The notes under the pieces were generated by a model. That model saw nothing but the letters and a program-made list of their open reading frames with translations, was not told where the DNA came from and made no database searches. Positions 1 to 39,304 of a stretch of DNA of 64,000 nt are shown here, piece after piece (positions within the stretch are counted from its first letter, which is position 1; each line of letters begins with the position of its first letter). Source of the DNA: Staphylococcus phage vB_SscM-1; sequence record NC_047767.1, one strand, 5' to 3'. Made by a program: the position numbers and the translations under genes.

Positions 1-300
1 TATGAGTAAGTAGGATGATAATTAAAACTTATAGGATGCATAGGATACGATAAGTTTTACTTATAGGATAAATCTTTAGGATGATTTACGATGAAATAGG
101 CTTAGGATGTTAGGATGCTTAAGTTACTATGGGATGATAAGATAAACTTATAGGATGTCTAGGATGTGATAAGTTTTACTTATGGTTATAACCATAAGTT
201 ATAGTTTGATAAGTTTTACTTATTATATAGGTTAAGGTGATAAGAAATTCAAATGATAAATTTCGAGGTATAAAAAGTATACCACCTTCAAACATGCATG
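1..300. repeat. Repeat-rich non-coding end/origin-like region (about ten TAGGATG/TAGGATA copies, three GATAAGTTTTACTTAT copies, palindrome TTATGGTTATAACCATAA)
   Basis: Direct reading of 1-300; no ORF of 60 aa or more in any frame. Confidence 0.6.
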
Positions 301-310
301 GTTGAGCCAT

Positions 311-330
311 TGTGGATAAACTGTGGATAA
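311..330. promoter_or_regulatory. Two tandem DnaA-box sequences TGTGGATAA (reverse complement of TTATCCACA)
   Basis: ccatTGTGGATAAacTGTGGATAAggt read directly. Confidence 0.45.
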
Positions 331-419
331 GGTAAAGTGTTATATTATAAGTGAAGTCAAGTTGATAACTTGATAAAGTATTTATACTTTATAACAAGAA
401 GAAACTTGATGAGTAGGTT

Positions 420-530
420 ACTCGAACTTAAGTAACCTACGAAGGCTTTGCCCTTAGATTTAGCCTTATAAATCTAAGTCGAGCTTGCTCGAAACGAAGC
501 GGTACGCTTCACAAACGATAACTTAAACTT
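420..530. other. Cluster of four consecutive stem-loops (AGGTTACT/AGTAACCT, CTTAGATTT/AAATCTAAG, GAGC/GCTC, GAAGCG/CGCTTC)
   Basis: Inverted repeats read directly in an ORF-free stretch. Confidence 0.4.
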
Positions 531-890
531 ATACATCAGACTCACATATAATATAAAGGCTACCACTATGTCCTTATTCAGGACTACATATAAGAAGTAC
601 TCAGGAGATTAATCTATAATAGGTTAGTCTCTTTTTTATTGGATTATACTCAAGTATACCAACATGATTTTGTCAAGAATAATAGGAGTAGGTTAATGCC
701 TTTCAGGCGTAAGTAACTCCTCAAATAAAAAGGTAAAATCTGTAAGTAGCAAGGGATATTTAGGTCAAGAATGTTGACTAAGTAGCGGAGTCTGATTTGC
801 TCAAGTAGCACCGTTAAATTCCGCCTACCCAGACCAGACCGCTTCTACCGGAATAAAATTCCGATTGAATAAGATTGTACACAATGTTTC

Positions 891-925
891 TGACCGTAAA
901 AGGATTGAGCACAATTAGCTTGTGC
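891..925. terminator. 12-bp perfect hairpin GATTGAGCACAA..TTGTGCTCAATC downstream of minus-strand gene 943-1203
   Basis: Perfect inverted repeat; lies 3' of the minus-strand stop codon. Confidence 0.5.
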
Positions 926-942
926 TCAATCTAATTACTTTA

Positions 943-1203
943 TTATTTAAAATAAATATCAAACCATTCTTCATATAATGATTCTGATAAATCTTTAAAT
1001 TTATCATTTTTATATTCAGTTTCTAACCAATCATAGTCTACAGTTAAAACAAATAAATATTTTTCTTCTTTGATATCTAATATTTCTCTTAATTCATTTT
1101 CTAAAATATTACATTGATAACGATTGTTTGTAGTTTGTAATAACTTGCGTACAAGTTTATTCAATCCTTCTTTACTTGCGTTTTTACTAAATTCCTTATT
1201 CAT
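943..1203 (-). CDS. Hypothetical protein (86 aa as re-called; ORF-track start at 1398 rejected)
   Basis: In-frame ATG at 1203-1201 preceded by AAAAGGA RBS; TTGACT-N17-TATCAT promoter at about 1262-1290 lies inside the longer ORF-track version. Confidence 0.45.
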   Translation of the reverse strand: MNKEFSKNASKEGLNKLVRKLLQTTNNRYQCNILENELREILDIKEEKYLFVLTVDYDWLETEYKNDKFKDLSESLYEEWFDIYFK

Positions 1204-1451
1204 ATAAATCAGTCCTTTTCTTTTTTTGTTTGCCTTGCTTACTACACTTATAATGATAAAGCATATAGGGTATAAAGTCAATAGTATTTTGAAACTTTTT
1301 TTATAAACTTTTAAAATAAGATTGCACACAATGTTTATGACCGACAATAGATTGTACACAATTCTATTTTTAAAATTTCTATGTCGTGTTTCTTCCATAT
1401 CAAACCAAAAAAAAGAATTTAAAAAAAATTAAACTTTTTTGCCTAAAAGTG

Positions 1452-1480
1452 TTTACAACGATTTCAGTATATGATATTAT
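1452..1480 (+). promoter_or_regulatory. Early sigma-A promoter TTTACA-N17-TATTAT
   Basis: Spacing counted directly; RBS AAAGGAGG follows. Confidence 0.55.
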
Positions 1481-1509
1481 TAGGATAGTTAAAGAAAGGA
1501 GGTGCGACA

Positions 1510-1818
1510 ATGAACGCGGAACGGATTGCAACGAACATTTGTTCGGTATTCGATTTTGACGGGTACAGGGACGATATAACGCCTAGCTACTATAATAGGT
1601 TAGGTCATAGTCGCTGGTATGAGTCACTAACGGTCAATGTACCTTATGGAGTGTTAAACACTGAAATACACTTCTACAAGCGTACAAGACGTTTTAAAAG
1701 CCCTACAGCGTTGGAGTGGGGAGTTGCTAGGGAGTTCAAAGGTTATGTAATATTGAGCCTATCTGGTACTGTATACATCATGAAAGATAACAGGTTACTA
1801 GGACAAAAAAAGTTTTAA
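1510..1818 (+). CDS. Hypothetical early protein (102 aa)
   Basis: ORF track; RBS AAAGGAGGTG 6 nt upstream. Confidence 0.6.
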   Translation: MNAERIATNICSVFDFDGYRDDITPSYYNRLGHSRWYESLTVNVPYGVLNTEIHFYKRTRRFKSPTALEWGVAREFKGYVILSLSGTVYIMKDNRLLGQKKF

Positions 1819-1837
1819 AAAAAGTTTATATAAAGTG

Positions 1838-1866
1838 TTGACAACCTCAGCACTTTATAGTAAACT
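1838..1866 (+). promoter_or_regulatory. Early promoter TTGACA-N17-TAAACT
   Basis: Counted directly. Confidence 0.5.
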
Positions 1867-1935
1867 AAAGATAGTTAAAGAAACAAGGCAAGTGCAAGCC
1901 AATTGCACACAATACAATATTAGGAGATGTTAAAT

Positions 1936-2232
1936 ATGAATAAAAACGAATTAAGCACAATGGAATTACATGAAATGTTAGTGGAGGCAAACGAAAACAC
2001 GAACGGAGCATATGAACACGTTCTGAAATACGAAGAAGCGGTATTTTGGTCTGATTTAGAAATGAGAGAGTTAAGTCCACAAGAAGCTATAAACATGGCA
2101 TTATATGGCAGTTATAAAACACATCATACCTATATAGGTTTAGACGGATATGGCAACCTAGCAGGCATGACGGAGGCGGAGTATAGAAAGGAATTACTGG
2201 ACTTATACGAAGAGTATTCTCAAGAATTATAA
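1936..2232 (+). CDS. Hypothetical early protein (98 aa; start moved to second ATG)
   Basis: AGGAGA then 8 nt then ATG at 1936; first ATG at 1927 sits inside the RBS. Confidence 0.6.
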   Translation: MNKNELSTMELHEMLVEANENTNGAYEHVLKYEEAVFWSDLEMRELSPQEAINMALYGSYKTHHTYIGLDGYGNLAGMTEAEYRKELLDLYEEYSQEL

Positions 2233-2309
2233 TAGTACACAATTAAATAGCGGTAGAATTCTACCGCTTCTATATTAAATTAAACACAATCTAATAGGAG
2301 ATGATTTTA

Positions 2310-2510
2310 ATGAAAAAAGAATTAGAAATTTTTACAGGTAATATTTATACAGAAAAGGATGTACACAATTTAATTGATGAGGTATCAGAAATTTTTATTA
2401 ATGAATTGGATACAATTGAAAGCGTGTATGTAATAATTAAAAAAGTTATTAAGTCTAATGGTAATCAAATAACTGTAGAAGCTTATAACATTTCAGATTT
2501 AATAAATTAG
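2310..2510 (+). CDS. Hypothetical early protein (66 aa)
   Basis: AGGAG then 9 nt then ATG at 2310. Confidence 0.5.
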   Translation: MKKELEIFTGNIYTEKDVHNLIDEVSEIFINELDTIESVYVIIKKVIKSNGNQITVEAYNISDLIN

Positions 2511-2554
2511 AATTAAATAGCACACAATCTATTAAAAAAATTATAAAAAAGGGT

Positions 2555-2857
2555 ATGATTAAAATGACAAACCAATTAACTAAAAAAGAAATTGAACAAA
2601 CTAAAGAATATATTTTAAATGCAATTGTTGAAGAAATTAATAATCAAGGCACTACATTTAATTTTATGAAAAAGGTTTATAACGATTATATGAAAAATGA
2701 ATTTGAACCAATTAATAATATAGATTTTGAAGATAGTATTGTATACAATGTATTTGATGTGGCGTATGAAGATTTATGTTATAATTATGAATTAATTTGG
2801 GAATTAGAACAACTTGGAATATTTTCAACATCTGATTTAATGGATGATTACATTTAA
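2555..2857 (+). CDS. Hypothetical early protein (100 aa; alternative start 2564)
   Basis: ORF track; weak RBS. Confidence 0.5.
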   Translation: MIKMTNQLTKKEIEQTKEYILNAIVEEINNQGTTFNFMKKVYNDYMKNEFEPINNIDFEDSIVYNVFDVAYEDLCYNYELIWELEQLGIFSTSDLMDDYI

Positions 2858-2874
2858 TAGTACACAATCTAAAA

Positions 2875-2910
2875 GAAGCGGAATCTAATTGACCGCTTCT
2901 TTATTTTTTA
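2875..2910 (+). terminator. Rho-independent terminator GAAGCGG..CCGCTTC plus T-run
   Basis: Hairpin plus TTTATTTTTT; the same hairpin family recurs at 2246-2270, 4394-4430, 5530-5552 and 7741-7775. Confidence 0.6.
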
Positions 2911-2974
2911 TTTATTAAATTGTATGCAAATCAATTGTACACAATTCAATTCTAAAAAAACTTAAAATTAGGTC

Positions 2975-3003
2975 TTGACAAAGGTTTAAAAAAATGGTAC
3001 AAT
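2975..3003 (+). promoter_or_regulatory. Early promoter TTGACA-N17-TACAAT, embedded in an AGGTCT..AGACCT stem followed by T7
   Basis: Counted directly. Confidence 0.55.
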
Positions 3004-3283
3004 GGAGTGGGAGACCTTTTTTTATATAAAAAAGATATTAGATTGTGTACAACTATATTCTCCAGGTATTAGATTGTACACAACTAGATTGTGTGCAATT
3101 TTATAAAAAAAAATTATTTATTTCTGGTCTTTCCCCCAACCTCGTCATTTGTATAGCGGAAGGGTTAGGCTGGTTACCGCTTGTCTTACTTTCTATATAT
3201 AGTATACCATGCGGTTAAATCATTGTCAACAGTTTTAACAAACTTTTTTTAAAAATATTTTTTTATTTTTTTACCTAAATCTG

Positions 3284-3312
3284 TTGACAGGTATTTTCAT
3301 TGTATGTTACAC
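3284..3312 (+). promoter_or_regulatory. Early promoter TTGACA-N17-TTACAC with TG extension, plus the conserved leader TTAACAAATCAAAGGAG
   Basis: The same promoter-leader unit recurs at about 7086-7142, 7438-7487 and 9043-9090. Confidence 0.6.
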
Positions 3313-3342
3313 TAGGTTTAACAAATCAAAGGAGTGGTCACA

Positions 3343-3669
3343 ATGAACCAATTTAAAAAAGACTTAACAGTAAAAATTTTACAGGATTACATCGATAGCC
3401 AATACTTAGGAGATTTAGATAATCAGCTTTTAGATGAAGATATCACACAAGAAGAATACAACGAAGCGGTTAGCCTAGAAGCTATTAAGAACTACACAGA
3501 AGGCGTTTTAAGCCACGCATATAGTACAGGGTACCTAGTTAGTCCAATTGACAACAGAAGGACTGTAGAAGCTAAACATATCAAATTTAGCGGTACAGAA
3601 AACATAGAAATGATGGTTATGCTTGCCAGTGCAGTATGCCATGCAATACATCAAAAAGAAATAAATTAA
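3343..3669 (+). CDS. Hypothetical early protein (108 aa)
   Basis: AGGAG then 8 nt then ATG at 3343; the ORF-track GTG start at 3334 is rejected. Confidence 0.6.
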   Translation: MNQFKKDLTVKILQDYIDSQYLGDLDNQLLDEDITQEEYNEAVSLEAIKNYTEGVLSHAYSTGYLVSPIDNRRTVEAKHIKFSGTENIEMMVMLASAVCHAIHQKEIN

Positions 3670-3742
3670 TTTCAAATAAAGGCTTGCAACGGTCAAGCCT
3701 TTATGTTATACTAAATTTAACAAATCAAAGGAGGTCGTCAAA

Positions 3743-4129
3743 ATGATGACATTAAAAAACAAAGTCGAAATTATTGTACCAAAATATGACAATGAAGGTG
3801 CTGAGATTTCAAGTCCTGTAATCAAAAGTGAAATAAATATCATGACTAAACTTGCTGGAGGTAATACAATCACTGAGGTTAAGGGTCAATGGTACTCAGA
3901 CGATACAGAAAGCGTTATGCAAGACGACAACTTGAATATTGAGTGGTACTATGACAAGGACATGGAGGACGCTCAAAGCTTTGTATTAGGCTTGTCGGTT
4001 ATTACTAGGGTATTGATTCTACAGTACCACCAGGAGGCGGTAAGCGTTAAAATTGATGGTGTGTTATACATCGTAAACGCTGACGACCTGTACAAGCTAT
4101 CAGGCACATTTGACAATTTAATGTTCTAG
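3743..4129 (+). CDS. Hypothetical early protein (128 aa)
   Basis: RBS AGGAGG then 8 nt then ATG. Confidence 0.6.
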   Translation: MMTLKNKVEIIVPKYDNEGAEISSPVIKSEINIMTKLAGGNTITEVKGQWYSDDTESVMQDDNLNIEWYYDKDMEDAQSFVLGLSVITRVLILQYHQEAVSVKIDGVLYIVNADDLYKLSGTFDNLMF

Positions 4130-4184
4130 GGATTTATTCCCTAGGCATTATATAAAAAAATTATACAATAAAGGACGGATAAAA

Positions 4185-4379
4185 ATGAAAACAGTTAGAA
4201 TTCTAAAAAATATTGAGGTTACTTTGGCACCTATTCATAATGACATAAATTGTGGACAATACTTTGACAAATATTATACAAATGTACACAAGAATATAAC
4301 AGTTACAAAAATTCATAAACAAATAGAAAAAGATGTTTATGATAGAAAATATTTAATTGATGCAATTGAAGTTAAATAG
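4185..4379 (+). CDS. Hypothetical early protein (64 aa)
   Basis: RBS AAAGGA; terminator at 4394-4430. Confidence 0.5.
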   Translation: MKTVRILKNIEVTLAPIHNDINCGQYFDKYYTNVHKNITVTKIHKQIEKDVYDRKYLIDAIEVK

Positions 4380-4998
4380 TGTACAATCTATTAGAAGCGG
4401 TTTAAATATAACCGCTTCTTTATTTTTTATTTATTACATTGTGTACAATTTAATTCTCCAGGTCTTACATTGTGTACAATTTAATTCAAAAAAAGTGTAA
4501 AATTAAGGCTTGACAAAAATCGAAAAATATGAGATAATGAAGTGACGACTATTTTTTCTATATAAAATTATTAAATTGTGTACAAGGTACTTTTTTTGGT
4601 CATCACTTTAATTATACCAAAAATGGTCTATAAAGTCAAGGATTAATTTTTACTTATTTTCAGAATAAAATTGTGTGCAATTAGATTGTGTACAATCTTA
4701 TAAAAAAAATTATTTATTTCGGCTCTTTCCCGTTACCCCTCTTGGGCAACTCTGGTAGTTATCTTTACTACACTTATAGTATATCATGGATGAAGCGGTT
4801 TGTCAACAGAAAAGATTAAAAAAGTTTTTTTAAATTTATTTATAAAAAGTGTTGACTTATGTATATTATCATGTTATTCTATATATAGAGTTAAGGAACA
4901 GCCACAAAAAAGAAAATAAAAAAACTTTTAAAAAAGGGTTGACACTTACTCTAAAGCATGATAATATAGAGTTAACAAAAGAAAAGGAGATGTTTTAA

Positions 4999-5274
4999 AT
5001 GAAAGATTACACTTACACAATTGAGGTTAAAGGCAAAACAAAAAAGAAGACAGTTTTAACATTCTTCTACAAGGGAGAAAAATTCGGTACTAGAACAAGC
5101 ACTAAACCTCCTGAAGCATTTGAAGCTTATGCAGTGGTAGAGGAGCCAGGTCAAGCACCTGGAATACTAGCGGTTGGCAAAATCAAAACATGTGAGCAGA
5201 ACACAAGAGAAATGAACAACTTCTACTCTAGAACAGGCAGACAAGAAAAAGCTTTCACAATCTTATTAAAATAA
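4999..5274 (+). CDS. Hypothetical early protein (91 aa)
   Basis: AAAAGGAGATG.. ATG at 4999; promoters at 4850 and 4936 upstream. Confidence 0.6.
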   Translation: MKDYTYTIEVKGKTKKKTVLTFFYKGEKFGTRTSTKPPEAFEAYAVVEEPGQAPGILAVGKIKTCEQNTREMNNFYSRTGRQEKAFTILLK

Positions 5275-5388
5275 AATAGTGCAGGATTCATTCCTGCACA
5301 ATCTTTTTAAAAACTTTTAAAAAAAGTATTGACACTTAAAAACAATTATGGTAATATTAAATTAACAAATCGAAAGGAATTGATAACA

Positions 5389-5526
5389 ATGAGATACGAA
5401 ATTACCGCATTAATCAATCAAGAGTTATTTATGTATGCAACATTCAACAAGCAGGAGGCAGAAGCAAAATATAGTGAATGGTGCGACCTGTACGGTCAAG
5501 ACAAAGTGAGCATGACAACAAGCTAA
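5389..5526 (+). CDS. Small hypothetical protein (45 aa); the ORF-track version starting at 5329 is rejected
   Basis: ORF-track start TTG at 5329 is the -35 box of a TTGACA-N17-TAATAT promoter; the real ATG is at 5389, after AAAGGAA. Confidence 0.45.
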   Translation: MRYEITALINQELFMYATFNKQEAEAKYSEWCDLYGQDKVSMTTS

Positions 5527-5573
5527 ACAGAAGCGGTTTAAACCGCTTCTACCTTTAAAGGAGGTGCTGGAGC

Positions 5574-5735
5574 ATGAACATGCTGGAGCATATCAGCAGG
5601 CAAGAGCATGTGCTGGAGCAGGTGCAGGCAGACCTGCAGGCGTTTCACAAGCTGGAGAAAAAAAGAAATAAAAAACTTTTAAAAAAACTGTTGACAGTAT
5701 CGAAACTATCCTGTAATATAATAATTAAGAAATAA
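5574..5735 (+). CDS. Candidate small ORF (53 aa), GC-rich CTGGAG/CTGCAG-repeat coding sequence, basic C-terminus
   Basis: RBS AAAGGAGGTG then ATG at 5574; translated by hand; its 3' end runs through the next promoter. Confidence 0.3.
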   Translation: MNMLEHISRQEHVLEQVQADLQAFHKLEKKRNKKLLKKLLTVSKLSCNIIIKK

Positions 5736-5761
5736 CAAAAAATAACTAGGAGATGTTACAA

Positions 5762-6088
5762 ATGAAATTTATCAAAACAATTGAAGGACTTTTAAACAAA
5801 GCAGAGCAAAAAGGGGAAGCGGTTTTAAATGGTCGCATGAATGAAGGCTGGGGAATGTTTGGAGAGCTGGAGGAGAAATATGCTATTGAGATTGAGGACA
5901 ATAAGCTGATTATGAGACACTGGGGAACGCAAACAATCGAAATTGATTTAAGTGTTAACAAAATCATTTCATACTATGGTGAGTCAGTGAGTGACCGTGA
6001 CAGCTTAAATACGCTTGTATATTGTTTAGGAATGGAGCCTAACTTTAGATACTTACCAAGCAAAGACTTATTCATCTATGAGGACTAG
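5762..6088 (+). CDS. Hypothetical early protein (108 aa)
   Basis: AGGAGATGTTACAAATG; second ATG used. Confidence 0.6.
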   Translation: MKFIKTIEGLLNKAEQKGEAVLNGRMNEGWGMFGELEEKYAIEIEDNKLIMRHWGTQTIEIDLSVNKIISYYGESVSDRDSLNTLVYCLGMEPNFRYLPSKDLFIYED

Positions 6089-6101
6089 AGAGGGTTAAAA
6101 A

Positions 6102-6130
6102 GTGCTGGAGCTTTCTCCAGCACATTATTT
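6102..6130 (+). terminator. Hairpin GTGCTGGAG-CTTT-CTCCAGCAC plus T-rich tail; an identical copy lies at 6803-6830
   Basis: Read directly; two identical copies. Confidence 0.55.
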
Positions 6131-6156
6131 AAAAAAATTAAATGGAGGTTTTACAA

Positions 6157-6657
6157 ATGAAAAATAATCAAGAATTTAGCAAAAACTTTTTAAGACTTTT
6201 AAAGGTTAAGAATGTGAATGATAAGAGAGTGCAGGGTTTTATAAATGCATATAATATCAAGCTGGAGGACAAAGAAGAAAGCACGCAGGGATATGTGAAC
6301 GTATTATACAGGGGTTATGATTTTGTAGTGTCTAAAGACTATGCAGGACAAACAGCCTTATATGTGAACGGTTATAACTTGAATGTGGACTATAAACATT
6401 TTAAGCACCTAGATTTTGATAATATTGTGCGGGCGTTAGAAAGGAAGAATAATAACCGTGTTGAGTACAAGAAATCAAAAACAGAGCAGTATAAAGAATT
6501 TAAGCACCGCCAGAGAACAGAAAAGCAAATGCTGGAGTATTATAAGGAGGATGTAGAAAAGCTGGAGCAGGAACTTAAAAGACTGCAGAGAGCCTGCAAG
6601 GACAGAGCGGATAAGGTAAAAAGCTATGACAGAAAAATAGCTAGATTATTTAAATAA
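6157..6657 (+). CDS. Hypothetical early protein (166 aa), C-terminal coiled-coil-like K/E-rich
   Basis: GGAGG then 8 nt then ATG at 6157. Confidence 0.6.
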   Translation: MKNNQEFSKNFLRLLKVKNVNDKRVQGFINAYNIKLEDKEESTQGYVNVLYRGYDFVVSKDYAGQTALYVNGYNLNVDYKHFKHLDFDNIVRALERKNNNRVEYKKSKTEQYKEFKHRQRTEKQMLEYYKEDVEKLEQELKRLQRACKDRADKVKSYDRKIARLFK

Positions 6658-6717
6658 AATGTTTGACAATCATAAATTAGTATGATAATATTAAATCAAA
6701 GGTTAGGAGGTGCAGGA

Positions 6718-6798
6718 ATGAAAGAACGATTATACAGATATGGACTTGTATTTTTTGGATGTGCATTCTGGTTATTATTCAGAATGATTTATGGTTGA
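6718..6798 (+). CDS. Candidate 26-aa hydrophobic peptide (MKERLYRYGLVFFGCAFWLLFRMIYG)
   Basis: RBS AGGAGG then 7 nt then ATG; TTGACA-N17-TAATAT promoter at 6665-6693; ends in terminator 6803-6830. Confidence 0.35.
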   Translation: MKERLYRYGLVFFGCAFWLLFRMIYG

Positions 6799-6857
6799 AA
6801 AAGTGCTGGAGCTTTCTCCAGCACAACTTTAAAAAAACTTATTAGGAGATGTTGAAA

Positions 6858-7085
6858 ATGAACATGAACGAAACTATTGAGAGCCTGAGGGAAGAGTTTT
6901 TACTACTTGATAATTATTACCCTCAGGGAGTGGCGTTAGACGTTATGGAGCGTATTGTAGCATGTGGTAAGGGTAAGGAAGCGGTGGACTGTATTGTTCA
7001 GCATATGCCTGTTGAAGCACCTGCAAGTGATATTGACCTATTCATTTATGAATGCATTCATCACTTTATAAATTATTATGAATAA
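6858..7085 (+). CDS. Hypothetical early protein (75 aa)
   Basis: AGGAGATGTTGAAAATG; second ATG used. Confidence 0.55.
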   Translation: MNMNETIESLREEFLLLDNYYPQGVALDVMERIVACGKGKEAVDCIVQHMPVEAPASDIDLFIYECIHHFINYYE

Positions 7086-7151
7086 AAGTGTTGACAGTTA
7101 TTTTTAACCTATGTTACACTTGTATTAACAAATCAAAAGGAGATGTTTTCA

Positions 7152-7430
7152 ATGAAAAACACAATTAAATCAGTTATTGAGGTATTAGAGAATAAAGGCT
7201 ACACAGTGGAGCAGGCAGAAGAAAACAGAATGCTGGAGGTTATAAGTCCTGCAGGTGTTGTGGAAGATATTACACCTAGCTTTGTTAATGCTGGAGCAGT
7301 AGAGGACTTACCAATTAGTGAATTCATCAATGAAGACACTAGAAACATATGTTTTGAGTTTTACGGTTGGACTTTAAACTTCCCAACAGCTAAAGAGTTA
7401 ATAACAGAAATTGAAAAAGTTTTTAAATAA
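7152..7430 (+). CDS. Hypothetical early protein (92 aa)
   Basis: Conserved leader plus AGGAGATGTTTTCAATG. Confidence 0.6.
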   Translation: MKNTIKSVIEVLENKGYTVEQAEENRMLEVISPAGVVEDITPSFVNAGAVEDLPISEFINEDTRNICFEFYGWTLNFPTAKELITEIEKVFK

Positions 7431-7496
7431 ATGTTTGACAGAAATATTTAACCTATGATACAATGAATTTAACAAAACAAAAGGAGATTGATAAAA

Positions 7497-7760
7497 ATGA
7501 TTATTAAAGAAATAGTACAAGGTTTCGTAGCAAATGAATTCGACAGAATGGAAGACTTGAAAGAGTCAGCGGTTAGCTGGTTAGAACTAACAGAAGATAG
7601 CTACAAGGAAGAGCAGAAGCACAACCAACAAGATTACAGCAGGAACATTAAAGCCTGCAGGGAAGCAATGCAGGAGGTCGAAAACACAGAAGACCTGCAG
7701 GTAATCAATGAGTGGTTAAGCTTTGCTGGAGTACAATATGAGGTCGAAGCGGGTTACTAA
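7497..7760 (+). CDS. Hypothetical early protein (87 aa)
   Basis: AGGAGATTGATAAAAATG; the TTG start of the ORF track is rejected. Confidence 0.6.
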   Translation: MIIKEIVQGFVANEFDRMEDLKESAVSWLELTEDSYKEEQKHNQQDYSRNIKACREAMQEVENTEDLQVINEWLSFAGVQYEVEAGY

Positions 7761-7789
7761 CCCGCTTCTAAATTAAAGGAGGTAATCAC

Positions 7790-8077
7790 ATGTTTACTAA
7801 AAAAGAAAACTACTCAAAATTACTACAGGTGCAAGAAATAAAAGCCGATACAACTTTTGAAGATACTACAACATTTTGGAACGTGGCAACATTTGAAAAC
7901 TCAACAGATGAATTAGAAGATAGCTATATCACAATTGAGGTATGGTCTGATGAAAGCAACTCAATAAAGATAATAGAATCAGACGACACAGACCATCAAG
8001 AGATTAGCGACAAGCTACCTAAAAATGTACTAAACCACTTACACAAATTAGTATATGCAGAACTAAATAAATTATAA
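7790..8077 (+). CDS. Hypothetical early protein (95 aa), acidic
   Basis: RBS AAAGGAGGTAATCAC ATG. Confidence 0.6.
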   Translation: MFTKKENYSKLLQVQEIKADTTFEDTTTFWNVATFENSTDELEDSYITIEVWSDESNSIKIIESDDTDHQEISDKLPKNVLNHLHKLVYAELNKL

Positions 8078-8092
8078 AAAGGAGGTAATCAC

Positions 8093-8275
8093 ATGTATGG
8101 TATTTGGAACGCAATAGAAGACGTGCAGGAGGTAAGAGACTACAGCAGGGAGCAGGTCATAGAGTTTGCTAATATTGAGCGTGTAACAGTCACAGGCATA
8201 AGAGAAGAAATCAAGACACTAGAAGAAGCGGAAGAGTTTTTACTAACACTAGGCTATATAGTAGAGGAGATGTAG
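8093..8275 (+). CDS. Hypothetical early protein (60 aa)
   Basis: Identical RBS AAAGGAGGTAATCAC ATG. Confidence 0.55.
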   Translation: MYGIWNAIEDVQEVRDYSREQVIEFANIERVTVTGIREEIKTLEEAEEFLLTLGYIVEEM

Positions 8276-8278
8276 ACA

Positions 8279-8443
8279 ATGACAATTAAAGAACTTATAG
8301 AGCAGTTGCAGGCAGTAGAGGACAAAGACCTACAGATATACGCATGTAATGAGCAGGGAGACAATTTACCTATTAACTCAGTATCATTGTATGATGAAGA
8401 GGACAAGCACAGCAACACAAACCCATTAGGACTAAACTATTAA
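8279..8443 (+). CDS. Small hypothetical protein (54 aa), translationally coupled
   Basis: ATG 3 nt after the upstream TAG; GAGGAG 11 nt upstream; translated by hand. Confidence 0.4.
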   Translation: MTIKELIEQLQAVEDKDLQIYACNEQGDNLPINSVSLYDEEDKHSNTNPLGLNY

Positions 8444-8456
8444 GGAGATGTTTATA

Positions 8457-8840
8457 ATGAACAAAGAACAGTATAACTATTTATTTAATAAGGTAACAGT
8501 ATTCAAGGATATGGAGGACTACAACAACAAGACAATTGACGGAGCAGAGCAATTAGACGAAGCACTGCAGGAAGGCTTTATACAAGACCTCACAAGAGGT
8601 GTATATAATGGAGCAACGGACACATTCACACCTAACACATTAAATGCTAAAGAACTTGTATTAGCAGTACAACAATATTTATATGAAACTGATTGGTTAT
8701 CTACTCTATACACTCAACATGAGGAAGATGACGACCTAGAAACTTTTGAGCAGTTAACAAGGTTTGATATGCTAGAGGACTATCTCAACTGTTATAGTGT
8801 GTTTACAATCGGTAACAGAATATATGCAGATATAAGCTAA
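8457..8840 (+). CDS. Hypothetical early protein (127 aa)
   Basis: AGGAGATGTTTATAATG; second ATG used. Confidence 0.6.
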   Translation: MNKEQYNYLFNKVTVFKDMEDYNNKTIDGAEQLDEALQEGFIQDLTRGVYNGATDTFTPNTLNAKELVLAVQQYLYETDWLSTLYTQHEEDDDLETFEQLTRFDMLEDYLNCYSVFTIGNRIYADIS

Positions 8841-9099
8841 TATAAGGCTCCTAGAGAGCCTTTAGATATTTTAGGTATAAAACTATTAAGAGAGGAATGG
8901 TGAGCGTATATGAGCGTACTAGAATCGGTAGACAATGCAATAAAGGAATTTAATCAATTACCTTATGAAGAGAAGAAAAACAAAGAAATCACGATTGATA
9001 AATTAATTGAAAAAAATCTAAAAAAACTTTAATAAAACCTTTGACAGATATTTTAGTTGTATGTTATACTTGTATTAACAAATCAAAGGAGTGGTAAAA

Positions 9100-9285
9100 A
9101 TGAAAGATACAATCAAAATGTACCAAGAAAGAATCAAATACTTCACGAAAGAGATTCACAGAATGCTAGACCTAATCGACAACGCAGAAATTCACGAACT
9201 GAATGATATCCTAGCAAGTGTGGACGACCTAAGATTCTTAAGAGCAGATGCTGAAAGAATGCTAGAATTTTATGAAGCAAGATAA
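9100..9285 (+). CDS. Hypothetical early protein (61 aa)
   Basis: Conserved promoter-leader; AGGAG then 8 nt then ATG. Confidence 0.55.
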   Translation: MKDTIKMYQERIKYFTKEIHRMLDLIDNAEIHELNDILASVDDLRFLRADAERMLEFYEAR

Positions 9286-9292
9286 AATGAGT

Positions 9293-9320
9293 AAGGGAAT
9301 TAATTCCCTTGCTTTTTTAT
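9293..9320 (+). terminator. Terminator AAGGGAATTAATTCCCTT plus T6
   Basis: Perfect palindrome followed by GCTTTTTT. Confidence 0.65.
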
Positions 9321-9483
9321 TTGTCTTGAATTAACTTGCACACAATGTAATCTATTCTAATTAGATTGTACACAATATAACCCACCCCGTGCGTTTTCAA
9401 CACATTGTGCACAACCTAATATCAGCTACGGGTGCTACCTGAGGTTCATATTTTTCGTGCTTAAATATAATTTTAAAAAATTT

Positions 9484-9660
9484 CCTAAATAAGGTAAATA
9501 TAAAAGTCAACATCCATACCCCCTTATTTAAAGTCAACATTACTAGCCCTTAACCCTCCCCCTATAATAAAAAATTAGGAAAGGGTAATTTATAAAAGTC
9601 AACATTTATAGTATATCTATAAAAGTCAACATCTACAACCCTTTCCTAAAAGTCAACACT
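9484..9660. repeat. Five direct iterons (T)AAAGTCAACA(T/C) at the early plus / minus-block strand switch
   Basis: Copies at about 9504, 9530, 9596, 9626 and 9651; no -10 box at promoter spacing, so they are not simple promoters. Confidence 0.55.
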
Positions 9661-10690
9661 ACTTATTATATACCTCCCTATATCTACACTTAATAAGTAC
9701 AGGGTCTACATAGGTATATTGGTTAAGGCTCCCTATGATATGATTGAATGTGCTCCTACGTGCATCCACCTCTATATAAGTTATATCATTGTCCTTACAA
9801 TACTGTTTCTTTATTATGTCCGATTCCTTAGTAATTTTATGGCTCATATATCCTGTTACTTCTTGATAGTGTTGCATACCATGTACTTCTACTGCTGTAT
9901 GAGATTCAGGTAAGTAGAAATCAAAACGTTTCAATCCTAGGTCTTTAAACTTGTACTCTCTTATATAAGGTATATTAAGTATATCTAGATAGGCTTGTGT
10001 GACCCTCTCACCGAAAGATGAATAAGATTTAGTACAAGTACACTTATAGGTATCACTTGTTAAGTCTAGCACCCTTATACTTTTTTTAGTATGGCAATTA
10101 GGGCAAGTTGTTGATATTCTACTTCTAGATGAGTATCTATAGTTGAAGAGGTCTTCTCTATTAGTTACATATTGGTGTATATGCTTATGGTGGTAAAGCA
10201 ACTTACTCTGCGGTACTGTGCTGTGTGGTACGTAGCTATCTCCTTTTATTGCTTTGAGTTTTTGATTAGAGATTATACCATATACTTCTTCCCTTATATT
10301 ATAGACTAAATAAAAGTACGTATCTGCTTCCTTTTTAACTGCTAGTATCTCACACCCTTTTACCTTATCTCCTACTTTATAGTCTTGCATCGTGTACTTC
10401 TTATTTTGTGTTGTGATATAGTTAAGCTTAACTCTCTTTAAGTTATTGACTTGTTGTGTGAACGTTTTATTGTTATACGTAATATCTATAAGCACGGTCT
10501 TAGACTGACTAGGACTATACTTAAGGTGTAAGTGACCTTCTATATCATGATACTTAAATGGTACGGTATGGTTCGTAGCTTTCCAATATATAGACTTGCC
10601 ACGTCTTGGTAATGTAGATAGGTCTATAAAGTTAGTTATACCTGTCTTAGTCTCTGAATAATAAATGTTATTGTTATTATAGTATTTCAT
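9659..10690 (-). CDS. Free-standing homing-endonuclease-like protein with a Vsr/DUF559-like nuclease C-terminus (343 aa)
   Basis: C-terminal RFDFYLPES..VEVHG..H..K..D motif shared with 43287-44219 and 60856-61788; RBS AAAGGAG; promoter 10715-10743. Confidence 0.55.
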   Translation of the reverse strand: MKYYNNNNIYYSETKTGITNFIDLSTLPRRGKSIYWKATNHTVPFKYHDIEGHLHLKYSPSQSKTVLIDITYNNKTFTQQVNNLKRVKLNYITTQNKKYTMQDYKVGDKVKGCEILAVKKEADTYFYLVYNIREEVYGIISNQKLKAIKGDSYVPHSTVPQSKLLYHHKHIHQYVTNREDLFNYRYSSRSRISTTCPNCHTKKSIRVLDLTSDTYKCTCTKSYSSFGERVTQAYLDILNIPYIREYKFKDLGLKRFDFYLPESHTAVEVHGMQHYQEVTGYMSHKITKESDIIKKQYCKDNDITYIEVDARRSTFNHIIGSLNQYTYVDPVLIKCRYREVYNK

Positions 10691-10714
10691 TAAAAAACAT
10701 CTCCTTTTTTTCTT

Positions 10715-10743
10715 ATTATAACATAAGAGTTTGGAGATGTCAA
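10715..10743 (-). promoter_or_regulatory. Consensus promoter TTGACA-N17-TATAAT (minus strand); a twin with the same TTGACATCTCCAAAC core lies at 11323-11351
   Basis: Counted on the reverse complement. Confidence 0.6.
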
Positions 10744-10899
10744 TAGGTTAAAGTATTTCTATTATAAGTGATATCGTACAAAGGATGATAAGTATAGCTA
10801 GTAATACAATACCTAAGACTCTATCTAAGTCGTCTCTGGCATCTACTATCATAAATACACTGAATATGAGAAGGAAGGCAAGTATAAAAGGCATTATCA

Positions 10900-11286
10900 T
10901 TACTTATCCTCCCCTAGTAAGTGTGGATTCTCAAATTTGTTGCCTATGATTTCTACATCAGTATCCCCTTGTTCATTAACGACTAGTTTCCAACTTTGAC
11001 CATTTTGCCATGCAGGATACATTAGCCAATATCCATCAATACGTCTCTTCACAACGCCAATTGCTTTATATCCCTCCGATATAGCTGTAACAATATCTCC
11101 CTCATATATCTCCTTACCGTTCTTATCTAATAGCCCAGTTGATTGTAAGAGTTCGATATCTTCGAAATTATCCACTTCGGTATATTTTCCATTCACCCAT
11201 ACAATCTCTTTATACTTATAATTAATTTCTTGAACATCAACAATCTTCTTGTGTATGTTTAAATATGCTCTAAACTTCGGTATCAT
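10900..11286 (-). CDS. YopX-family protein (128 aa)
   Basis: N-terminal MIPKFRAY.., C-terminal IIGNKFENPHLL; paralogous to 12165-12575 and 13313-13672. Confidence 0.65.
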   Translation of the reverse strand: MIPKFRAYLNIHKKIVDVQEINYKYKEIVWVNGKYTEVDNFEDIELLQSTGLLDKNGKEIYEGDIVTAISEGYKAIGVVKRRIDGYWLMYPAWQNGQSWKLVVNEQGDTDVEIIGNKFENPHLLGEDK

Positions 11287-11379
11287 TTATTTGTCCTCCT
11301 CTATAACATCTCATTTTGTCTTATTATATCATAGACGTTTGGAGATGTCAATTATTAATTTCCTCATACCATAATCTTA

Positions 11380-11592
11380 TTAGAACTTTAATATATATTT
11401 AAATTCCAATTCCTCATACTTAATATCTGCTATACTACTTGTTGGTATCTCTACATACTCACCATTACTAGATATTACATTTATTTTATCCTTACTAAAT
11501 ATCTCTCTTAGTACCTTATCATTATTAAATACAGAATAATATATATAAAGGTCATTATTTTTTGTTATTATTTTTATTAAGTGATAGTGCAT
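11380..11592 (-). CDS. Hypothetical protein (70 aa)
   Basis: RBS GGAGG then 8 nt then ATG. Confidence 0.5.
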   Translation of the reverse strand: MHYHLIKIITKNNDLYIYYSVFNNDKVLREIFSKDKINVISSNGEYVEIPTSSIADIKYEELEFKYILKF

Positions 11593-11604
11593 TATTATTC
11601 CTCC

Positions 11605-11760
11605 TTAGTCTTCGACAACAATGATAGGTCGTTCAAATTCACTATCTTTATACTCAACCTCAATTGTTATATCTTGTTCATCTGATGTTTTTAAATCAAC
11701 ATTTTCCCCATACCGTTCAGCAATATAGTTTAGTTCTTCTATCATCTCTTTTATTAGCAT
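11605..11760 (-). CDS. Small acidic hypothetical protein (51 aa; not in the ORF track)
   Basis: RBS AAGGAGG then 8 nt then ATG at 11760; translated by hand. Confidence 0.45.
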   Translation of the reverse strand: MLIKEMIEELNYIAERYGENVDLKTSDEQDITIEVEYKDSEFERPIIVVED

Positions 11761-11773
11761 TTAAAAGTCCTCC

Positions 11774-11938
11774 TTATTTTTCATCAAATTCTTGCAAAGT
11801 TTTTAATACTTTAAATCCTTCCATTTTAGAAACCCTACTACCAATAAAACGCTCTGGTGTATGTTCTATTTCTTCTAAGGCTTCTTCTGGATAACCGTCT
11901 GCTAGGTCTATAATAAAGTCTTCGTGCTCGTAGTCCAT
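11774..11938 (-). CDS. Small acidic hypothetical protein (54 aa; not in the ORF track)
   Basis: RBS AAGGAGGG then 6 nt then ATG at 11938. Confidence 0.45.
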   Translation of the reverse strand: MDYEHEDFIIDLADGYPEEALEEIEHTPERFIGSRVSKMEGFKVLKTLQEFDEK

Positions 11939-11981
11939 TAATTACCCTCCTTGTCTGGTTTTATAATTATTTATTAGTATC

Positions 11982-12164
11982 TTAAATTCCATAAGTTATT
12001 ACCAAAGAAATCATAAAAATAAAAGCAAAAAACATAAGAGTAAGTGCTGATATTGTAAATAACTTATTATATATTTCCTTTTCAATTGTCATTACTAAAA
12101 CAAATGATGTACCAAAAAAGAAAAAAGATGTTATCATTAGTAAGCATAATATAGTTAGTATCAT
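11982..12164 (-). CDS. Small membrane protein (60 aa, two TM segments)
   Basis: Hydrophobic; ATG directly after the upstream TAA; RBS GAGGAGG. Confidence 0.5.
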   Translation of the reverse strand: MILTILCLLMITSFFFFGTSFVLVMTIEKEIYNKLFTISALTLMFFAFIFMISLVITYGI

Positions 12165-12575
12165 TTACTTGTCCTCCTCTAGTAAGTGTTCATCCTGATA
12201 AACATTTCCTAGTATTTCAATTTCCAATGTATTTGTATAACTTTTAAAATAAAAATCAGTTAAAGGTATATTTTTAGAGATATGTAATCCTTCAATATAA
12301 AATCCACCTTTTACTTTTTTAACTATACCTCTTAAATAAATTGTTCCTTCTAACGTGCGTACATCGACAATTTGAGATTCAAATACTTCATTACCATTCT
12401 TATCTAATAGTCCAGTCGATTGTAGTAGTTCGATATCTGAAAAATGGATAAAATCTCCCATATCTTCTTCATCAAATACTTCTTTAGTCCATACACCCTC
12501 TGCATCATAATTAATTCCATGAACATTTAACATTTCTTTTTCCCATTTATCCCATGCTCTAAACTTCTGTATCAT
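12165..12575 (-). CDS. YopX-family protein (136 aa)
   Basis: MIQKFRAWDK.., ..ILGNVYQDEHLLE. Confidence 0.7.
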   Translation of the reverse strand: MIQKFRAWDKWEKEMLNVHGINYDAEGVWTKEVFDEEDMGDFIHFSDIELLQSTGLLDKNGNEVFESQIVDVRTLEGTIYLRGIVKKVKGGFYIEGLHISKNIPLTDFYFKSYTNTLEIEILGNVYQDEHLLEEDK

Positions 12576-12594: not shown

Positions 12595-13131
12595 TTAACT
12601 TATGTGCTTCCACGAACGTTTATTTTTCACATCTCTAATAGCTTGTTCTGATACATTAAACATTAATGACAATTCTTTAACTGTTTTTGAGCTCTCTCTT
12701 ATATATTTAACTTTTTCTTCATTTAGTTTAGCTGAATGTTGTTTTTCTCCTCTGCTCACGTTAGCTAATCCATATTCATGAGCGTGAATTGAATTTTCTG
12801 TAGGTGTTGACCATTCCAAATTTTCTAAATTAGAATTTTGTTTATTCCCGTCTATATGATTAACATATGCTTTATTAAGGGGGTTAGGTAGAAAGGCAGT
12901 TGCAACAATTCTATGAACTAAATGCCTTTTACATTTTCCGTTTATACATAAATTTACCATTGGATAACCTGCGTTTCCTAAATACTGTGACATTTGTCTA
13001 CCTTTTATTTTCATGTTACTCGTTTTACGTTGTATAACCCTGTCTAAACTTTTTATATTACCTAAATTACTAACCTCATAAAAACCCTCATATCCTTTTA
13101 CATCTTTCCATTCCTCATACTCATACGCCAT
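12595..13131 (-). CDS. HNH homing endonuclease (NUMOD4-like N-terminus, HNH_3 core, C-terminal HTH)
   Basis: EGFYEVSNLG; HRIVA..NHIDGNKQNSNLENLEW..N motif. Confidence 0.75.
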   Translation of the reverse strand: MAYEYEEWKDVKGYEGFYEVSNLGNIKSLDRVIQRKTSNMKIKGRQMSQYLGNAGYPMVNLCINGKCKRHLVHRIVATAFLPNPLNKAYVNHIDGNKQNSNLENLEWSTPTENSIHAHEYGLANVSRGEKQHSAKLNEEKVKYIRESSKTVKELSLMFNVSEQAIRDVKNKRSWKHIS

Positions 13132-39088: not shown

Positions 39089-39304
39089 TTATTCTCCTGA
39101 TAATTCTTCTTGTAATTTATCCCAATATTTCTCCGCTTCACTACGATTATCTTCTACGTGCTTAGTTACTTTTCCACATTTGACACAATATAAATCTTTA
39201 ATATGCCCTTCTTCTCTTTTTCTACTTCTCTTACGTGGTACCATAAATACTGAACCACATTCTTTACAGTTTAATTTTGAATAAGTCATTGCTTGTCTTT
39301 TCAT
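39089..39304 (-). CDS. Zinc-ribbon protein (71 aa; CxxC..CxxC)
   Basis: CKECG..CVKCG; RBS AAAAGGA then 9 nt then ATG at 39304. Confidence 0.5.
   Translation of the reverse strand: MKRQAMTYSKLNCKECGSVFMVPRKRSRKREEGHIKDLYCVKCGKVTKHVEDNRSEAEKYWDKLQEELSGE

Follow-up and report, generated by a model that had tools for sequence, protein, structure and literature searches.

Our analysis showed that the first 940 bp of a 64,000-nucleotide stretch of DNA from Staphylococcus phage vB_SscM-1 (NC_047767.1; the whole stretch is called the window here) form a non-coding spacer which is a mosaic of three parts, 1-170, 170-685 and 686-940. By homology to related phages, this spacer probably lies among early genes, inside the long terminal repeat (LTR), and its middle part is a strain-specific cassette carrying two perfect head-to-tail DnaA boxes. 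The explanation that we tentatively prefer is that the spacer is a non-coding LTR cluster of protein-binding sites that would bind host DnaA, would not be a genome end and would be non-essential to the phage. A previous sequence-only reading had taken the same 940 bp for a terminal-repeat boundary, a packaging region or an origin, with DnaA boxes that would recruit or titrate host DnaA. Its statement that the region carries no open reading frame (ORF) was borne out, as we found no credible one. The longest ORFs of the spacer, of 53 and 44 aa, have no PHROG or Pfam match, and among the small ORFs at 650-811(-), 176-310(-) and 814-912(-) none matched PHROG and neither of the first two matched Pfam.

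The phage is of the Sciuriunavirus type (Twortvirinae), staphylococcal with a Mammaliicoccus host, and the window corresponds to its left arm; the GC content of the genome is 31%. At 40-60 kb, where the terminase, portal, capsid and sheath genes lie, it is 97.8% identical to Staphylococcus phages UHP46 and ZCSS1; in the first 20 kb the identity to these phages is ~91% over 69% of the length. Small rightward genes extend up to ~9.3 kb and are followed by leftward genes. This is the usual Twort-like layout, a terminal repeat and then a leftward arm. Exact matches to proteins of the window were confined to a 1.5-kb metagenome contig starting at window 972. Viral and metagenome contigs scanned with the DUF7335 protein that neighbours the spacer yielded none long enough to reach it, and a 30-mer scan of viral contigs had no hit.

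The direct terminal repeat of UHP46 has been determined by PhageTerm as 12,857 bp (PMC11861072). Our search of the first 13.4 kb of UHP46 found just two CCTGRG motifs, CCTGGG at 23 and CCTGAGG at 12,881, and because their spacing of 12,858 bp coincides with the published repeat length, CCTGRG is regarded here as marking the inferred repeat edges. MCE-2014 has CCTGGG at 274. In Kayvirus, which belongs to the same subfamily, the terminal-repeat edges are marked by the 12-bp TAAGTACCTGGG / CCCAGGTACTTA (PMC7596081), and the Sciuriunavirus relatives have the related CCTGRG at both inferred edges. In vB_SscM-1 the right-edge context ctaCCTGAGGttcatatttttcg is kept at 9438, while the left-edge CCTGRG was not found anywhere in the 64-kb window and would lie outside it; within 1-940, neither CCTGRG nor the Kayvirus motif TAAGTACCTGGG was found. 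Window 30-117 is homologous to the AGGAT array of ZCSS1 at 3132-3218, and 685-936 to ZCSS1 3739-4003. Since the right-edge motif is kept, the left-edge motif is absent and the arrays are homologous to those of ZCSS1, base 1 of the window is placed by homology at about 3.1 kb inside the terminal repeat. The similarity to ZCSS1 appears to reach base 1, where 12 of 15 comparable bases match by eye. In ZCSS1 and UHP46 the distance from the repeat edge to the homologous AGGAT array is 3.1 kb, and in MCE-2014 it is ~2.4 kb, the array being inside the repeat in each case.

The records of ZCSS1 and UHP46 start and stop inside a tandem 11-mer array, (ACATAGACAAC)n, of at least 10 copies, located directly left of CCTGGG (in ZCSS1, at 2640-2744 of the examined right-end stretch and at 1-20 on the left); no such array was found at the corresponding junction of PG-2021_31. 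ZCSS1 1-3100 also contains CCTGGGATTTTCG. In this group, records begin at arbitrary points or within repeats, and several relatives have been deposited permuted. From the edges and arrays placed by homology and from these arbitrary record starts, we conclude that the apparent "end" at base 1 is most probably an artefact, set by the start of the record or window.

The sequence-only reading had described two tandem perfect DnaA boxes at 311-330, and they are present as described. The two TGTGGATAA copies, at 311-319 and 322-330, are the sole perfect DnaA boxes in the 64 kb. Staphylococcal DnaA recognises the TTATCCACA consensus. The exact 20-mer formed by the pair, TGTGGATAAACTGTGGATAA, was found in at least 120 bacterial contigs, compared with a chance expectation of ~1 by our own estimate. 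Among the matches listed, the 20-mer was found in Bacillota, Spirochaetota, Pseudomonadota, Bacteroidota, Patescibacteria and other phyla; an ORF with a DnaA signature (G.GKTHL or RDH[ST]T[VI]) lay within ~1 kb of it in 35 of the 120 loci, and many copies lay in larger box clusters. By reason of these contexts, TGTGGATAAACTGTGGATAA is a canonical oriC/dnaA-promoter module across bacterial phyla. A relaxed form of the pair with the same 2-bp spacing, TGTGGATAAnnTGTGGATAA, occurs in at least 120 IMG/VR viral contigs; tandem DnaA-box pairs thus recur among viruses and are no peculiarity of vB_SscM-1. Among the matches listed, none of these contigs encodes DnaA, and about one third have just the two boxes. 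A few cultured phages carry the relaxed pair in unannotated DNA.

The recruitment or titration of host DnaA that had been proposed earlier is thus supported, as far as the sequence goes, by the canonical tandem 20-mer and by the viral pairs of the same spacing, and from consensus and geometry we infer that the pair would bind host DnaA. No perfect DnaA box was found in the homologous LTR stretches examined in ZCSS1, MSShimriz1 and PG-2021_31. Since these relatives do without a perfect box, the pair is apparently not essential to these phages.

The cassette contains three of the six dyads described below (the sixth is at 518), a palindrome, the DnaA-box pair, four hairpins and a terminator-like hairpin, together with most of a one-strand GATAA series. 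It stands between two repeat arrays, in place of a 54-aa membrane-protein gene and a 115-aa gene of the relatives. No DNA homologue of the cassette was found in phage or plasmid collections, only the array and 685-936 match phages when 1-700 is considered, and no remnant of the 54-aa or 115-aa gene was found in the window, either as DNA or, by tblastn, as protein. ZCSS1, UHP46, MSShimriz1 and PG-2021_31 all lack the cassette together with its boxes. The palindrome, previously given as 18 bp, is perfect as claimed but is really 22 bp long. Similarly, four consecutive hairpins do exist, with coordinates of 413-510 instead of 420-525, and the cluster folds with z = -4.7 as RNA and -5.1 as DNA. 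GAAGCGG is the staphylococcal Chi heptamer (PMC11442139; bioRxiv 2021.07.08.451572). One copy, at 496-502, lies inside the last hairpin (496-510), which resembles Chi-bearing terminator stems found throughout the LTR.

The left part of the spacer contains the roughly ten TAGGATG/TAGGATA heptamers that had been noticed before, of which nine are exact and one is a variant. The exact copies start at 11, 32, 41, 64, 77, 103, 111, 151 and 160, all on the + strand, with an irregular spacing of 8-26 bp. TAGGATG itself is not over-represented in the window (12 copies, 8.8 expected), and 7 of the 12 lie within 11-166; the nine TAGGAT[GA] copies in 170 bp compare with a maximum of three when the whole window was simulated 200 times under a first-order Markov model. 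This part appears to be the dispersed form, in this phage, of the (AGGAT)n array of the relatives. In ZCSS1 (array at 3132-3222) and PG-2021_31 the array is a tight run of 8-11 pentamers, which lies just past a Chi-bearing terminator and provides the start codon (TTAGGATG) of the 54-aa membrane-protein gene. MCE-2014 has ~14 AGGAT copies in an intercistronic spacer at 2675-2775 and Listeria phage P100 has 22 at 3662-3748, so that the copy number ranges from 8 to 22 among phages. Whereas the array is a tight pentamer tandem in the relatives, here dispersed heptamers are interleaved with dyads. Two copies of a 52-bp module each contain three heptamers and two dyads. The three GATAAGTTTTACTTAT copies pointed out earlier are present at 49, 168 and 208, and they are members of a six-member ATAAGTnnnACTTAT dyad family, whose six matches in the 64 kb (1.5 expected) all lie at 18-532. 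These dyads look like operator sites for a dimeric protein. GATAA occurs 14 times on the + strand and not once on the - strand within 17-521, and the simulated maximum was 8.

Our comparison indicated that the right part, 686-940, is conserved with the relatives and comprises a degenerate CTAAGTAGC array, a Chi site and a terminator. The order of its elements is the CTAAGTAGCTCC cores, Chi on the - strand, a small hairpin, the TTGTACACAA motif and the terminator. The relatives have six copies of CTAAGTAGCTCC (the CTAAGTAGC array of ZCSS1 is at 3765-3875), compared with three or four cores left in the window. The stem of the terminator shows compensatory changes relative to PG-2021_31 (8210-8240 of the examined stretch), TTGAGCACAA/TTGTGCTCAA versus TTGAGTACAA/TTGTACTCAA. 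This is the hairpin that had been placed at 891-925 with a 12-bp stem; it exists, and in fact spans 902-932 with 13 pairs.

MCE-2014 and the P100 group have both types of array, of the same kind as in the spacer, with CTAAGTAGC arrays at 3378-3431 in MCE-2014 and at 3829-4365 in P100; in vB_SscM-1, unlike in these phages, the CTAAGTAGC array is degenerate. Both arrays are also found together in several large IMG/VR phage contigs. The AGGAT and CTAAGTAGC arrays together look like a conserved frame that encloses a slot of variable content. It was also observed that the two arrays co-occur in early or terminal-repeat regions of Herelleviridae phages of Staphylococcus, Mammaliicoccus and Listeria, and that CTAAGTAGC is often present as CTAAGTAGCaGGCTACAaaa, with a GTAGC..GCTAC dyad. 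We know of no published description of the AGGAT/CTAAGTAGC arrays of Herelleviridae, although no dedicated literature search was made, and no published description of the elements of the spacer was found for Sciuriunavirus.

According to the explanation that we prefer, the spacer would function as DNA, in the form of a cluster of protein-binding sites. It is present twice per virion genome because it lies inside the terminal repeat. The tandem boxes would bind host DnaA cooperatively, the multiplying copies would sequester or anchor DnaA, and the outcome would be a non-essential accessory of host manipulation and not a phage replication origin. The closest parallel is found in the LTRs of T5-like phages, which have large untranslated regions packed with palindromes and with direct and inverted repeats. 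Their DnaA boxes are always paired, 3 bp apart, and have been suggested to retain the incoming DNA on DnaA at the membrane (bioRxiv 10.1101/866236). Like the T5 iss region (bioRxiv 10.1101/866236; Heusterspreute 1987 cited there), the spacer is a large untranslated stretch, located within the long direct repeat at the termini of a virulent phage whose genome is not permuted. It is likewise dense in direct repeats, inverted repeats and palindromes, it has consensus DnaA boxes in a close pair (2 bp apart here, 3 bp in T5), and it lies among early host-takeover genes, far from the replication genes. However, T5 has ~8 boxes in four pairs at fixed positions, kept in 25 T5-like phages, whereas here one pair is found in one phage and the close relatives named above lack the cassette with its boxes. 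There is no sequence similarity to T5, and the host is Gram-positive. In T5 the DNA enters in two steps, with pre-early genes of the A1/A2 type. Twortvirinae are not known to inject their DNA in this way, and a large A1-like gene is unlikely in this LTR, since all ORFs in window 1-9400 are of 171 aa or less, although such a gene was not sought by homology.

If the LTR DNA enters the cell first, as in T5, the spacer might be a non-coding host-takeover device, in which the pair would capture DnaA and either pause or anchor the incoming repeat at the membrane, or titrate DnaA and so stop host initiation. We give this extension only a slender chance. If true, this would make the spacer the first of its kind among Gram-positive Herelleviridae phages. 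Should the pair capture DnaA, a Gram-positive myovirus could add a non-coding host-factor trap to its terminal repeat, as T5-like phages appear to do, and since relatives carry two small genes at the same site, natural comparison strains exist. The kind of element is already known, an untranslated repeat-rich LTR region with paired DnaA boxes, and what is new would be its presence in a Gram-positive Twortvirinae phage, in one strain. Failing that, we regard the region as an intergenic spacer of the ordinary sort, though an ornate one. The genome-end reading is best dropped.

Several points weigh against the explanation that we prefer. The cassette is known from a single genome, so that purifying selection on it is not shown. 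A stretch of 64 kb should contain ~0.5-1 perfect box by chance, and as both boxes belong to an 11-bp tandem duplication, the pair could stem from one chance box that was later duplicated. The phage has a single pair compared with about four in T5, and the DnaA-anchoring model of T5 is itself only a hypothesis. The placement of base 1 depends on homology and on one published PhageTerm figure from another phage, and no partner protein was identified for the dyads or the heptamers.

The strongest rival, which we consider unlikely but credible, holds that the spacer is a functionless hypervariable site, a hot spot of recombination or slippage between the two repeat arrays. The cassette, with its orphan terminator hairpins, would then be a scar left behind when genes were lost or by illegitimate recombination, and the DnaA-box pair would be a chance box copied by the 11-bp tandem duplication in which it lies. 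The segment between the arrays varies in every lineage: ZCSS1 and PG-2021_31 carry two genes in it, MCE-2014 carries others, and P100 has a different segment. This rival would agree with that variation, as well as with the variable AGGAT copy number, the degenerate CTAAGTAGC array, the likeness of the hairpin at 496-510 to stems found across the LTR, the single genome in which the cassette is known, and the relatives that manage without the boxes. However, the cassette is ordered: the six dyads are unique in the 64 kb, 14 of 14 GATAA copies are on one strand and the hairpins have z of about -5. The box pair, moreover, is the exact module that recurs in bacterial oriC, and its 2-bp spacing recurs in viral contigs. 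A replication origin, where the repeats and boxes recruit DnaA or a phage initiator and open the DNA so that replication starts from each terminal repeat, seems to us distinctly improbable. The direct repeats, the box pair and the moderately AT-rich flanks (GC of 0.22-0.24 at 201-250 and 351-400) do resemble iteron origins, and the relatives carry the regular 18-bp repeat six times just downstream. The same 20-mer, head-to-tail with a 2-bp spacing, is found in bacterial oriC/dnaA-promoter clusters with the basal unwinding system of Firmicutes, of which the two head-to-tail consensus boxes are present here. But the spacer has no further boxes, no DnaA-trio array, no strong AT-rich element and no dnaA/dnaN context. 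The orientation rule reportedly given by Richardson et al. in 2016 puts the trios and a GC cluster directly 5' of boxes that read TGTGGATAA, followed by an AT-rich element. Inspection of that side found no trio array and no GC cluster combined with trios; directly upstream, ...CAAACATGCATGGTTGAGCCAT contains no TAG/TAA triplet array and the flanking GC is 0.24-0.32, which is unexceptional for a genome of 31% GC. As for an iteron-type theta origin of the plasmid or lambda-like kind, no regularly phased 17-22 bp iterons were found beside an initiator gene in the region; the 18-bp array is degenerate in the window, and the heptamer spacing is irregular. There is no adjacent initiator gene; the neighbours are small LTR proteins without an initiator family match. 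The four close relatives examined must replicate without the boxes, and the earlier suggestion of an origin is weak.

The region might also act as RNA, with the transcribed UAGGAUG array serving as a sponge of Shine-Dalgarno-like or CsrB-like GGA motifs, and, alternatively or in addition, with 413-641 encoding a structured small RNA; we consider this very unlikely. It would be in line with the density of AGGA, which reaches 37.5 per kb on the + strand but is 0 on the other, with the hairpin cluster and terminator that come after the array, and with the array of MCE-2014 and ZCSS1, which lies in an mRNA leader or intercistronic spacer and provides the start codon of the next gene. The repeat of CsrB/RsmZ is CAGGAUG, and the UAGGAUG unit is close both to it and to the Shine-Dalgarno core. 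On the other hand, a promoter scan found no sigma-70-type promoter on the + strand in 1-1288, Rfam gave only chance-level hits (E >= 1.6), the array RNA is not unusually structured (z -1.9), no CsrA-like signature was found in six-frame translations of the 64-kb window, and we know of no CsrA in staphylococci. Least probable of all, and in our view hardly tenable, is a physical genome end, terminal-repeat boundary or packaging signal at 1-940. The window does begin exactly at the array, and arrays near repeat edges are found in the genus, such as (ACATAGACAAC)n at the ZCSS1 record ends and the five AAAGTCAACA(T/C) repeats at 9503-9658, right of the inferred edge. However, the boundary-associated CCTGRG is absent from 1-940 and present at 9438, and the similarity to ZCSS1 seems to continue to the first base. 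When compared with the boundaries of relatives, as the sequence-only reading had suggested, the edges of UHP46 at 23 and 12,881 do not coincide with the array at 3132-3222, and in MCE-2014 too the homologous array is kilobases inside the repeat. vB_SscM-1 and vB_SscM-2, the Sciuriunavirus exemplars, are 454/MIRA assemblies, and the accessible part of their description mentions no end mapping. The boundary proposed earlier was therefore rejected, and a packaging-site role of the spacer is unlikely. The SRL/SRR elements of T7, reportedly described by Dunn and Studier in 1983 as short heptamer arrays next to the terminal repetition, likewise are said to consist of 7-base units in one orientation near a terminal repeat, but they would abut the repeat edge, compared with kilobases inside here, and the sequences are unrelated.

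Table 1. Features of the vB_SscM-1 spacer and of the inferred right edge of the terminal repeat (window coordinates)
Feature	Position	Strand	Basis
TAGGAT[GA] heptamer array, nine exact copies plus TGGGATG at 130	11-166	+	motif scan
52-bp composite module, two copies (13-64, 132-183), 87% identical	13-183	+	repeat-family analysis
15-bp dyad ATAAGTnnnACTTAT, six copies at 18, 50, 137, 169, 209 and 518	18-532		64-kb scan
Strain-specific non-coding cassette	170-685		homology comparison with relatives
Perfect 22-bp palindrome ACTTATGGTTATAACCATAAGT	178-199		sequence and hairpin scan
Two perfect head-to-tail DnaA boxes, TGTGGATAA-AC-TGTGGATAA, 11 bp start to start	311-330	+	motif scan
AGTTGATAACTTGATAA, direct 8-bp repeat including a weak 7/9 DnaA-box-like site	360-376	+	sequence inspection
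Four consecutive stem-loops without T-tails (413-440, 453-478, 479-492, 496-510)	413-510	+	folding
Intrinsic-terminator-like hairpin, then TTTTTTATT	603-641	+	terminator scan
Degenerate remnant of the relatives' 18-bp CTAAGTAGCTCC array, cores at 711 (AAGTAAC), 744, 780 and 803	686-830	+	alignment
Chi heptamer GAAGCGG in block conserved with relatives	839-845	-	motif scan
49-nt motif containing TTGTACACAA (875-884); second copy at 1315-1363	868-916	+	repeat-family analysis
13-pair hairpin, read as terminator of leftward gene 943-1203, possibly bidirectional	902-932		hairpin scan
CCTGAGG, inferred right edge of terminal repeat	9438-9444	+	motif match and published UHP46 12,857-bp repeat

Our scan for the Chi heptamer found 18 copies of GAAGCGG in the window, compared with 0.84 expected. 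Seventeen of them are inside the inferred terminal repeat (496-8231), 11 on the + strand and 6 on the - strand, and the remaining one is at 39133; many form both arms of terminator stems, and six are in coding sequence. In UHP46 the heptamer is present 31 times, from 169 to 12,290, and so occupies exactly the interval that separates the inferred edges; the following 1.1 kb are free of it. In PG-2021_31 its copies begin at the inferred start of the repeat, with 27 to the right of that point and not one in 4.5 kb to the left. No copy was found in the last 2.7 kb of ZCSS1, and MCE-2014 carries 8 copies over 3.5 kb. GAAGCGG does not occur in 30 kb of PMS3, another phage that infects M. sciuri, and the PMS3 record shows no duplicated ends and no CCTGRG. 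The distribution of Chi appears to support independently the inferred repeat edges in UHP46 and PG-2021_31. It also suggests that the Chi-rich terminal repeat may be a shield of the exposed DNA ends, by which they could resist the host AddAB/RexAB nuclease; no published link between Chi sites and staphylococcal phage terminal repeats was found. CCTGRG as inferred repeat edges and a terminal repeat packed with Chi are landmarks of Sciuriunavirus which can help to orient assemblies. These by-products, namely the CCTGRG rule, the Chi-saturated repeat, the repeat-confined TTGTACACAA and the AGGAT/CTAAGTAGC frame, may be more useful than the spacer itself.

Directly right of the inferred repeat edge is a leftward ORF of 343 aa at 9659-10690(-), which has no Pfam match. 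It is common to PMS3, where the homology begins from window 9667, and ZCSS1 has other small genes there. TTGTRCACAA occurs 12 times in the window compared with 0.28 expected, always inside the terminal repeat and usually within TAGATTGTACACAAT, with positions including 875, 1352, 2935, 3043(-), 3074, 4439(-), 4470(-), 4576(-), 4686(-), 9366 and 9405. It is often found between terminators and early promoters, and a related metagenome contig has ~8 copies per kb. TTGTRCACAA may be the operator of an early-gene regulator.

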